Part shown: positions 51,323 through 58,799 of the stretch, piece after piece | Numbering within the stretch: position 1 is the stretch's first letter | Layout: each line of letters opens with the position of its first letter | Source: a virus | Taxonomy: Duplodnaviria > Caudoviricetes | Virus record (IMG/VR): IMGVR_UViG_3300037424_000564 | Span: 1 to 64,000 of that record | DNA: 64,000 nucleotides | Strand: one strand, 5' to 3' | Notes under the pieces: model-generated | The model's database searches: none | What the model was told of the DNA's origin: nothing | The model's input: the letters and a program-made list of their open reading frames with translations, nothing else | Made by a program: the position numbers and the translations under genes

Positions 51323-51407
51323 AGCCGGAAGAGGGATTCGAACCCCCGATGTAGTTTCCATACCTGATTACAAGTCAGGTGCAATCGACCAACTATGCGA
51401 TTCCGGC
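51323..51407 (-). tRNA. tRNA-Thr(UGU) with 15-nt variable region
   Basis: GCCGGAA/TTCCGGC acceptor, CCTGA-CTTGTAA-TCAGG anticodon arm, TTCGAAT T-loop, U73. Confidence 0.85.
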
Positions 51408-52383: not shown

Positions 52384-52477
52384 TGGTACTCCGTGAGGGA
52401 CTTGAACCCCCATCATGCGATAATCTGTCGCCAAGCCTGTGTATAAAACAGGTGCTTTGCCATTAAGCTAACGGAGC
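52384..52477 (-). tRNA. tRNA-Ile(UAU) with 24-nt variable arm
   Basis: CCTGT-TTTATAC-ACAGG; variable-arm stem GCGA/TCGC; CCA. Confidence 0.85.
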
Positions 52478-53401: not shown

Positions 53402-53573
53402 GGGCCAGTAGAAGGATTCGAACCTCCAAAGATCATTAGAATACAACCGCCAGATACGTCTATCTACTTTATGCATTCCCGATCCAACTGTAGCCTTTCA
53501 TATACTTTCAGTCATGACTCCTGCCATATATGAACACTTTCTGTCTGCGTCTTCCAATTCCGCCATACTCGCC
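53402..53573 (-). ncRNA. 172-nt tRNA-like RNA with anticodon arm replaced by a roughly 115-nt structured domain
   Basis: GGCGAGTA/TACTGGCC ends, Leu-type D-arm GCG-GAATTGGAAGA-CGC, T-arm GGAGG-TTCGAAT-CCTTC. Confidence 0.75.
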
Positions 53574-54339: not shown

Positions 54340-54480
54340 CCAAGGGAGTTGGATTCGAACCAACATTCTTCTTATTACTTGATATTACCCTCTCTTATCT
54401 AAAATCAGTGATATCAACTCTGATTTGTCCATTGAGCAATAATACCTTTCATAAGGTGCTTTCCAGTCAGCTATCCCCCG
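54340..54480 (-). ncRNA. 141-nt tRNA-like RNA without an anticodon loop and with a large insert
   Basis: CGGGGGA/TCCCTTG, D-arm GCT-GACTGGAA-AGC, tetraloop hairpin, long stem domain, T-arm GTTGG-TTCGAAT-CCAAC. Confidence 0.75.
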
Positions 54481-55063: not shown

Positions 55064-55196
55064 AGCCGATAGTCGGAGTCGAACCAACGCTTGTCTTATC
55101 AATGATTTCTTAGATTTAACTAGTCATCTAAAAGCTATCTAAAGACATTATAACAGGATTTTGCAGTCCCTGCTCTAGCCACTGAGCTATACCGGC
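55064..55196 (-). tRNA. tRNA-Cys(GCA) with roughly 65-nt variable-region insertion
   Basis: GCCGGTA/TATCGGC, GCTC/GAGC D-stem, CTGCAAA loop with an extra A, U73. Confidence 0.8.
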
Positions 55197-55204
55197 AATA
55201 TTTT

Positions 55205-55323
55205 TAGCTTTTGATTGTAATCGAACCAATCTATACAAAACCTCAAGGTGACTAGTCTTGATTCAAGCCTTTAGTTGTCAACTACCTGCATTTAGTTTTG
55301 TATAAAATCCATCTTTAAAAGCT
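55205..55323 (-). ncRNA. 119-nt tRNA-like RNA with long stem and branched apical domain
   Basis: AGCTTTT/AAAAGCT, TATACAAAAC/GTTTTGTATA, T-arm GATTG-GTTCGATTA-CAATC. Confidence 0.65.
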
Positions 55324-55581: not shown

Positions 55582-55668
55582 TGGTGGGTGTGGAGGGATT
55601 CGAACCCACGCTGGCGTAAACGCCTCCTGATTAAAAGTCAGGTATATTACCACTATATTTACACACCC
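55582..55668 (-). tRNA. tRNA-Lys(UUU) with 16-nt variable arm
   Basis: CCTGA-CTTTTAA-TCAGG; variable-arm GGCG-TTTA-CGCC; CCA. Confidence 0.88.
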
Positions 55669-56145: not shown

Positions 56146-56499
56146 CTAGTCTGTCAATTTATAAATCATGACATAAACTTTTAAACCTTTTTTAGTTGCA
56201 TAATCAATCATACCTTTTGTCCCGGCAGACTTTCCGTCCCAAATAGCAATGAGCGCATCTGCATAGTCTACCATTTCTCTATTTCGGATATGACCAGCGG
56301 CTTTACCTTTACCATCCCAATCAGGAATAAAAAACTTTATAGAAATATGATTCTTTTCTGCAAACTCTTTACCTAGTCTATCTACCCCTCTAGCACCACC
56401 ACAAACAACTTCAGTTATAACAAATCTAGCTTCTTTAACAGCTTTGAGTATTAGATTATAGTCCGTTATATCTCTACTACCTGCGATGATTACTTTCAT
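56146..56499 (-). CDS. SLOG-superfamily protein (DUF2493/YspA-like)
   Basis: VIIAGSRD, CGGARGVD, AGHIRNREM, WDGKSAGT. Confidence 0.88.
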   Translation of the reverse strand: MKVIIAGSRDITDYNLILKAVKEARFVITEVVCGGARGVDRLGKEFAEKNHISIKFFIPDWDGKGKAAGHIRNREMVDYADALIAIWDGKSAGTKGMIDYATKKGLKVYVMIYKLTD

Positions 56500-57121: not shown

Positions 57122-57136
57122 ATATTTGTTATATTG

Positions 57137-57212
57137 AGATTGCAAAGGGAGTCGAACCCTTTATTCGAAGTTTTGCAGACTAAGCCCATTACCACAATGA
57201 GGAAATGCAATC
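57137..57212 (-). tRNA. tRNA-Cys(GCA)
   Basis: CTGCAAA loop, U73; weak anticodon stem. Confidence 0.8.
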
Positions 57213-58476: not shown

Positions 58477-58622
58477 ATAGAATAATTGAGGGATTGAACC
58501 TCATATTTCGAACCATCAATATAAAGACCCATTTTCTTTATACACAAAGGGAATCGAACCCTTACTTGATACGACCAGTATTTAATAGGAATTGAACCTA
58601 ACTACTCACCAAGTTATTCTAT
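58477..58622 (-). ncRNA. Candidate multi-T-loop RNA
   Basis: ATAGAATAA/TTATTCTAT closing stem with three T-arm-like hairpins. Confidence 0.6.
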
Positions 58623-58709: not shown

Positions 58710-58799
58710 TGGCTCCAGTGACAGGCTTCGAACCTGTAAGTTCCTTGCGAGAACGCTTGATTAACAGTCAAGTGGGTTTGCCAATTCTCCTACACTGGA
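58710..58799 (-). tRNA. tRNA-Asn(GUU) with 18-nt variable arm
   Basis: CTTGA-CTGTTAA-TCAAG; variable-arm GTTC/GAAC; G73; CCA. Confidence 0.88.

Follow-up and report, generated by a model that had tools for sequence, protein, structure and literature searches.

A 133-nt gene located in the tRNA island of a large phage was found to have the acceptor, D and T arms of a tRNA together with a 65-nt insert at the position of the variable arm. Our preferred, tentative interpretation is that the gene produces an unspliced, end-processed RNA with a giant arm, which would be derived from a tRNA and would not decode normally.

Setting and architecture of the 133-nt gene

The window that was analyzed (64,000 nucleotides) covers the initial 64 kb of a virus genome of 205,056 bp, which is rated complete and has a GC content of 31%. 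Clear family matches for the major head protein, the tail sheath, the sheath stabilizer and the large terminase identify the phage as a T4-like myovirus, a phage type that implies a bacterial host. Positions 51.3 to 60.9 kb of the window harbor a same-strand island of ~30 tRNA and tRNA-like genes, with HNH endonuclease genes interspersed. In this array, the 133-nt gene is located 9 nt downstream of a 118-nt tRNA-like RNA, which itself begins 1 nt after tRNA-Gly. About half of the tRNAs of the island lack an encoded CCA. A gene encoding a Ro60-like TerD protein is present 5.5 kb from the 133-nt gene.

Additional genes relevant to tRNA metabolism were detected outside the window. A gene for a T4 Rnl1-type RNA ligase (G000:C1:111281-111898; PF09511, 66.9 bits; 380-aa open frame) suggests that the phage may possess a tRNA-repair pathway directed against anticodon nucleases. 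The genome also contains an amber-suppressor-type tRNA(CUA) gene (G000:C1:202687-202759; 69.5 bits), and a relative, L069, carries both tRNA(UUA) and tRNA(CUA) genes (L069:8877-8951 and L069:11644-11718). These genes hint that stop codons may be reassigned or read through in this group of phages.

Table 1. Positions in the window of the parts of the 133-nt gene, of the other over-long tRNA-shaped RNAs and of the conserved tRNA-Cys. The parts of the gene are read on the minus strand; idx, count from the 5' end of the gene.
Feature	Position	Strand	Remarks
Whole 133-nt tRNA-shaped gene	55064..55196	-	Rfam RF00005, 38.3 bits (gathering score, 29)
Acceptor stem, 5' strand (GCCGGUA)	55190..55196	-	Pairs 7/7 with 55065-55071
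D-arm, GCUC-AGUGGCUA-GAGC	55172..55187	-	Canonical; from the sequence and the Rfam alignment
Anticodon-like hairpin: A26, GGGA, loop CUGCAAAA, UCCU, G	55154..55171	-	GCA at 55162-55164
65-nt insert at the variable-region position	55089..55153	-	26% GC; idx 44-108; unaligned in the Rfam tRNA model
56-nt interrupted rod: UGUCUU/AAGACA, GAU/AUC, UUUUAGAU/AUCUAAGA	55092..55147	-	MFE fold, -9.8 kcal/mol; z = -1.16 against shuffles
Apical loop GACUAGUUAA, 10 nt	55116..55125	-	Contains the 6-nt palindrome ACUAGU
T-arm, GUUGG-UUCGACU-CCGAC	55072..55088	-	Canonical
Acceptor 3' strand and discriminator U (55064)	55064..55071	-	CCA not encoded; trailer begins with CUU
118-nt tRNA-like RNA	55206..55323	-	9 nt upstream of the 133-nt gene; hairpin loop ACUAGUCAC at 55248-55256
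141-nt tRNA-shaped RNA	54340-54480	-	7-bp acceptor, 3-bp D-stem, canonical T-arm
144-nt tRNA-shaped RNA	58478-58621		In the tRNA island
Lineage-conserved atypical tRNA-Cys(GCA)	57136..57212	-	Orthologues: L072:5867-5944, L070:6285-6355, L048:1195-1270

The acceptor stem of the 133-nt gene (GCCGGUA/UAUCGGC) is paired along its entire length, one of the pairs being G-U, and is followed by U8 and A9. The nucleotides expected at the elbow of a tRNA are all present (U8, A14, G18 G19, A21, G53, U54 U55 C56, A58 and C61). The Rfam tRNA model (RF00005) aligned the acceptor, D and T parts of the gene, leaving 76 nt as an unaligned insert, with a score above the gathering threshold and E-values of 1.7e-4 for the whole window and 9.3e-7 for a local search. 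The intact acceptor stem, U73, D-arm and T-arm of the original prediction can thus all be read in the sequence, and the 133-nt gene is confirmed as a real tRNA-shaped gene. Default ARAGORN misses it. When introns were allowed, the program called the gene as tRNA-Cys(gca) by forcing a 54-nt intron into the anticodon, and the stem reconstructed in this way contained a G.A mismatch. The same setting called a tRNA-Ser(aga) with a 78-nt intron on the minus strand at window positions 53402-53572; the stems are mismatched, a small open frame is overlapped, and this call is probably a false positive.

Anticodon arm, insert and the question of splicing

The 133-nt gene lacks the anticodon arm expected for a tRNA, namely, 5 bp and a 7-nt loop in which position 33 is U and position 37 is a purine. 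The arm can be drawn with 4 bp and an 8-nt loop or, in another register, with an AGGGA/AUCCU stem containing an A.A mismatch, nucleotide 26 then being missing. Enumeration of the registers revealed that, in every one of them, the arm has one nucleotide fewer than the canonical form. The extra A previously noticed in the anticodon loop does exist, the loop reading CUGCAAA(A), but the structure is better described as an arm that is one nucleotide short. Folded in isolation, the hairpin has a free energy of -2.4 kcal/mol.

The insert can be folded into a rod comprising 6 bp, 3 bp and then 8 bp below the 10-nt tip, preceded by 7 unpaired nucleotides and joined to the T-stem by a 3-nt AGC linker. 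The nested stems UGUCUU/AAGACA and UUAGAU/AUCUAA, which had been recognized by eye in the original prediction, were both recovered, the latter extending to 8 bp. The rod is no more stable than shuffled sequence, since 24 of 200 shuffles of the 56 nt folded equally well; the z scores for the fold of the 77-nt region and of the whole gene were -0.48 and -1.52, respectively. No other copy of the insert was found in the 205-kb genome or in the related loci fetched (about 60), the best other match in the genome spanning 13 nt, and searches for the hallmarks of a MITE-like or repeat-type mobile element found neither extra genome copies nor a flanking direct repeat or target-site duplication. The possibility that the insert is a diverged duplicate of the 5' half of the gene was rejected, as 211 of 2,000 shuffles scored equally well, and its similarity to the neighboring odd RNAs was not significant. 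A perfect extended -10 element, TGTTATAAT, is located within the insert region on the strand of the gene (window positions 55147-55155, minus strand). It is probably a coincidence, as the window should contain ~11 of these elements by chance alone.

In order to determine whether removal of the insert could generate a canonical tRNA, all possible single deletions in the region from the D-arm to the T-arm were made in turn, and each product was required to contain nucleotide 26, a 5-bp anticodon stem, a loop of 7 nt in which position 33 is U and position 37 is a purine, and a variable loop of 4 to 5 nt. None of the single excisions restored the canonical cloverleaf, and the best solution under relaxed conditions kept the AGGGA/AUCCU stem with its A.A mismatch and without nucleotide 26. 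Since no single excision rescues the arm, the missing nucleotide of the anticodon arm is independent of the insert. A permissive scan for a bulge-helix-bulge motif, one of the checks proposed with the original prediction, did not detect any such motif bracketing the insert. The complete phage record lacks RtcB and a tRNA-splicing endonuclease of the PF01974 family, for which control searches matched 4 archaeal genomes. Rfam intron, ribozyme and Y-RNA families gave no match at an E-value of ≤1 on either strand, the tRNA model being the only one that matched. The insert was rightly judged too short for a group I intron (65 nt versus about 200 nt or more).

Excision of the insert and rejoining of the halves, for example by the Rnl1-like ligase of the phage, is therefore very improbable given the lack of a productive excision, of the bulge-helix-bulge motif, of an EndA-type endonuclease or RtcB, and of any Rfam intron or ribozyme match. 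The phage does encode this ligase, ARAGORN can be made to force a 54-nt intron, and "introns" have been reported in tRNA genes of Lak megaphages (PMC6784885), but an Rnl1-type ligase is the classic tRNA-repair enzyme and on its own does not constitute a splicing pathway, and the T4-like type of the phage points to a host that is bacterial. Of the two options left open by the original prediction, a giant-arm tRNA or an intron, the former is consistent with the position of the insert and with the AGC linker, whereas the latter is not supported: the insert does not behave as a removable intron.

Identity, relatives and other tRNA-shaped RNAs

The body of the gene and its anticodon loop point to different amino acids. 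The acceptor stem with its discriminator U is identical to that of the tRNA-Thr(GGU) of the related locus L012 and resembles the acceptors of all compared tRNA-Thr genes of the phage group (seven genes from five loci, window included), all of which carry U73. Nucleotides 1 to 26 are 100% identical to those of tRNA-Thr from several Mycobacterium phages, such as PegLeg and Bongo. In the anticodon hairpin, the 8-mer CUGCAAAA is identical to that of the tRNA-Cys conserved in the lineage, in which it comprises the anticodon loop, which is invariant, and the base that follows. The assignment to tRNA-Cys made in the original prediction agrees with this loop, with the GCA anticodon and with U73, but the acceptor and D-arm are of the Thr type, U73 is also the usual discriminator for Thr in this phage group, and a conserved tRNA-Cys is present elsewhere. 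The label of tRNA-Cys should thus be regarded as uncertain.

The 133-nt gene is not an orthologue of the tRNA-Cys genes of related phages, the conserved lineage being that of the gene at 57136-57212 (Table 1). Members of this lineage have an invariant GUCUGCAAAAC loop and an odd D region, and six of their acceptor pairs show compensatory changes across the orthologues in three other phages. The second, normal-length Cys tRNA of the original prediction therefore exists, but in this phage it falls below the Rfam tRNA threshold, which two of its orthologues pass, and has two anticodon-stem mismatches, its arm folding alone at 0 kcal/mol. Because both Cys candidates of this phage are defective, neither is a clean decoder.

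Related phages were gathered by using the Ro60-like neighbor protein and the major head protein as queries. The closest match to the major head protein (70%) is on a 4.7-kb fragment and the closest match to the Ro60-like protein (68%) is on a 3.9-kb contig. In distant relatives, with 46 to 52% identity for the Ro60-like protein, the synteny of the island (Lys-Lys-Gly-...-His-Leu-Ser-Thr-Phe) is recognizable, and the syntenic interval between Gly and His in L002 contains no counterpart of the 133-nt gene. Pattern searches, both exact and gapped, with the anticodon arm, with the D-arm plus CUGCAAA and with the 3' half did not match any contig of the viral and metagenome collections, and a pattern scan of the genome collection returned two matches, both to unrelated genes of normal length. 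Scanning three whole related records with the Rfam tRNA model gave no match longer than 96 nt. A custom covariance model of the 133-nt gene, run against 31 loci, ranked ordinary tRNAs best, with the tRNA-Thr of L012 first, and additionally retrieved one unrelated 136-nt RNA. This RNA (L037:9150-9285, plus strand; the same in L038) is tRNA-shaped; its anticodon-loop region contains an insert of 49 nt, and its variable hairpin is GC-rich. It lies ~700 nt upstream of the Ro60-like gene of that phage. The tRNA island of the window also contains a gene for a 117-aa YAcAr/DUF2493 (SLOG-family) protein with thousands of homologues (PF10686; window positions 56146-56499, minus strand); in its nearest relatives (71 to 77% identity), this gene is not beside tRNAs, no tRNA island being found on the contigs with readable DNA.

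On this sampling, the 133-nt gene appears as an orphan, a status that has little power either way because the collections contain no close relative. Uniqueness of the insertion among relatives, which was named in advance as an argument against the original prediction, was indeed what we observed within the reachable data, and it counts for little for the same reason.

The 133-nt gene is not the only over-long tRNA-shaped gene in this phage group. In the 141-nt RNA of the island, the place of the anticodon and variable regions is taken by an AT-rich composite arm of ~85 nt without a usable anticodon loop, and the 141-, 118- and 144-nt RNAs are all tRNA-shaped and cannot decode. Related phages harbor tRNA-shaped genes of 123 to 193 nt. 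Extra arms of 12 to 21 nt are also present in class-I tRNAs of the window, namely, Thr-UGU (51323-51407), Ile-UAU (52387-52477), Lys-UUU (55585-55668) and Asn-GUU (58713-58799), all on the minus strand. Such tRNAs recur in distant relatives (L002, L069 and L070) as Lys, Asn and Thr versions with short GC-rich arms, and the 87-nt tRNA-Cys(GCA) encoded by L002 has U73 and a D-arm of the Ser/Leu kind. Conservation of extra arms on class-I tRNAs indicates that this phage group tolerates growth of the arm.

The apical loop of the rod (GACUAGU) is complementary over 7 nt to ACUAGUC in the 9-nt hairpin loop of the 118-nt neighbor, a match that was noticed post hoc and is reached by about 4% of the shuffles for this loop. 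Overall, the two RNAs are no more complementary than expected by chance (60% of shuffles do as well), and enrichment of ACTAGT in the island is weak (7 occurrences versus about 2.7 expected pro rata from a genome-wide count of 53).

Interpretation

Class II tRNAs (bacterial Leu, Ser, Tyr and Sec) similarly have an extra helix between the anticodon arm and the T-stem, and the AGC linker of the 133-nt gene is identical to that of the 84-nt tRNA-Lys(UUU) of the same phage. Class II tRNAs have a compact hairpin of roughly 10 to 25 nt starting 1 to 2 nt after the anticodon stem, also the dimensions of the extra-armed class-I tRNAs, whereas the arm of the 133-nt gene comprises 65 nt, about three times the length of the longest natural variable arms, and is preceded by 7 unpaired nucleotides. 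It is also AT-rich and interrupted, in contrast to the short GC-rich hairpins that form the real extra arms of this phage, and the gene differs from both types of tRNA by its defective anticodon arm and its lack of orthologues.

Stable RNAs of 120 to 145 nt with tRNA-like ends and unknown function are located in the tRNA clusters of phages T4 (species 1 and 2) and T5 (RNA1 and RNA2). The 133-nt RNA is similar to these in size and cluster setting, and the island holds several such RNAs; the likeness is to general descriptions of the T4 and T5 RNAs and not to their sequences, and, unlike them, the 133-nt RNA keeps a recognizable anticodon-type hairpin. Y RNAs of the YrlA type, which are associated with Ro60/Rsr, likewise consist of a long rod and a tRNA-like module, and a Ro60-like gene is in the vicinity. 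YrlA is circularly permuted relative to tRNA. Identity with a Y RNA or YrlA was rejected, with no Rfam match at an E-value of ≤1 and with the core GGCAUCCUUCUA of the three Y-like RNAs of the phage absent from the 133-nt gene. Devoto et al. (2019) described enigmatic, conserved and unexplained introns or inserts in tRNA genes of Lak megaphages (PMC6784885). These genes and the 133-nt gene are all over-long, belong to large phages, are missed by standard bacterial tRNA finders, can be called only with intron settings and have no known splicing mechanism. The comparison is one of description rather than of insert position or structure, and, unlike the insert of the 133-nt gene, which has no counterpart, those of the Lak phages are conserved between cohorts and are often identical.

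Our preferred reading supposes that the gene derives from a tRNA, its acceptor and D scaffold being of the Thr type, its anticodon loop of the Cys type and its discriminator U, and that the 65-nt AT-rich insert at the variable-arm position would result in an RNA with a five-way junction. Based on established tRNA biology, the gene would be cotranscribed with its neighbors in the array, the 5' end would be cut by RNase P, which needs only an intact acceptor/T-arm stack, and the 3' end would be trimmed and completed with CCA by host enzymes, as about half of the phage tRNAs would likewise require. The insert would be retained, yielding a mature RNA of ~133 nt without splicing. With an anticodon arm that lacks one layer and a very large additional arm, this RNA is most probably no ordinary decoder. 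It would more likely be one of several non-decoding tRNA look-alikes of the phage, for which plausible roles are those of decoys or partners for tRNA-binding enzymes or for tRNA-cutting defense nucleases.

We favor this reading because the cloverleaf is flawless outside the anticodon arm and passes the Rfam threshold, because the gene is part of a tight same-strand array, 9 nt after a tRNA-like RNA that itself follows tRNA-Gly by 1 nt, and because the AGC linker matches that of a long-armed tRNA-Lys. The absence of a rescuing excision, of a bulge-helix-bulge motif and of a splicing endonuclease or RtcB, the presence of other tRNA-shaped RNAs in the island and in relatives, and the conservation of class-I extra arms argue in the same direction. 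Precedents are provided by the Lak inserts (PMC6784885) and by engineered tRNAs with enlarged, aptamer-carrying tips of the variable arm, which still translate (Mukai; PMC7590224). On the opposite side, no homologue was found, so neither covariation nor conservation backs the rod or a function, the AT-rich rod folds no better than shuffles, and the 7-nt unpaired 5' linker is unlike that of real variable arms. The combination of an intact body with two lesions would also fit a recently disabled gene.

This last possibility, in which a class-I tRNA gene would have received a 65-nt insertion in its variable loop, lost one nucleotide of the anticodon stem and become a passively transcribed, functionless and decaying sequence, is rather unlikely in our view, although it deserves consideration. 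The two lesions are independent, the insert matches the phage background in composition (26% versus 31% GC) and folds as expected by chance, the gene is an orphan in every collection searched, and the lineage-conserved tRNA-Cys is available elsewhere in the island. However, the acceptor, D and T stems retain all of their 16 base pairs, and every elbow nucleotide is intact, in a genome with 31% GC, and any decay must therefore be very recent. Phage genomes also quickly shed dead DNA, and the insertion is accounted for neither by a repeat, a target-site duplication or a mobile-element copy nor by a diverged duplication of the 5' half. We consider it unlikely that the gene encodes a true tRNA-Cys(GCA), which would be charged by the host CysRS via U73 and GCA and would carry its giant arm on the ribosome, perhaps replacing the lineage's own tRNA-Cys, weakened in this phage. 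The CUGCAAA loop, identical to that of the lineage's tRNA-Cys, and the discriminator would suit such a function, as would the anticodon hairpin, at -2.4 kcal/mol versus 0 kcal/mol for the conserved tRNA-Cys with its two stem mismatches. Conserved class-I extra arms, including that of the 87-nt tRNA-Cys of L002, and the activity of the engineered tRNAs (PMC7590224) are also compatible with decoding. These arguments are countered by an anticodon arm that is one nucleotide short in every register, by the exceptional length of the insert and its 5' linker, unlike those of class II tRNAs, by the Thr-type scaffold, for which U73 is the usual discriminator here, and by the lack of orthologues. A chance match or an assembly artifact can hardly be entertained: the record is metagenome-assembled and the insert is an orphan, but the Rfam score is above the threshold, acceptor halves located 125 nt apart pair 7/7, and position and strand fit the tight tRNA array.

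Returning to a retained giant arm on a non-decoding RNA, a more elaborate scenario, which we regard as quite improbable, is that of a selected tRNA mimic in which the rod would serve as a docking arm and GACUAGU would pair with ACUAGUC of the 118-nt RNA, the two RNAs forming a tRNA-shaped particle that would counteract a tRNA-binding enzyme or cooperate with it. In a weaker version of this scenario, the gene would encode a true tRNA-Cys that decodes despite its 65-nt arm and 8-nt anticodon loop.

The 133-nt gene is a singleton, and its main practical value is a warning: default ARAGORN misses such genes, and pipelines that allow introns would mislabel them as "tRNA with intron". Should the RNA prove to be stable and under selection, it would be a further example of a tRNA-shaped RNA to which a large phage has added a very large arm at the variable position. 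Giant-armed RNAs of this kind are poorly described and escape both Rfam and standard tRNA finders. They may be relevant to the conflict over defense systems that cut tRNAs, such as Septu, which is reported in a 2026 paper to cleave the variable loop of tRNA-Tyr (PMC13096335).
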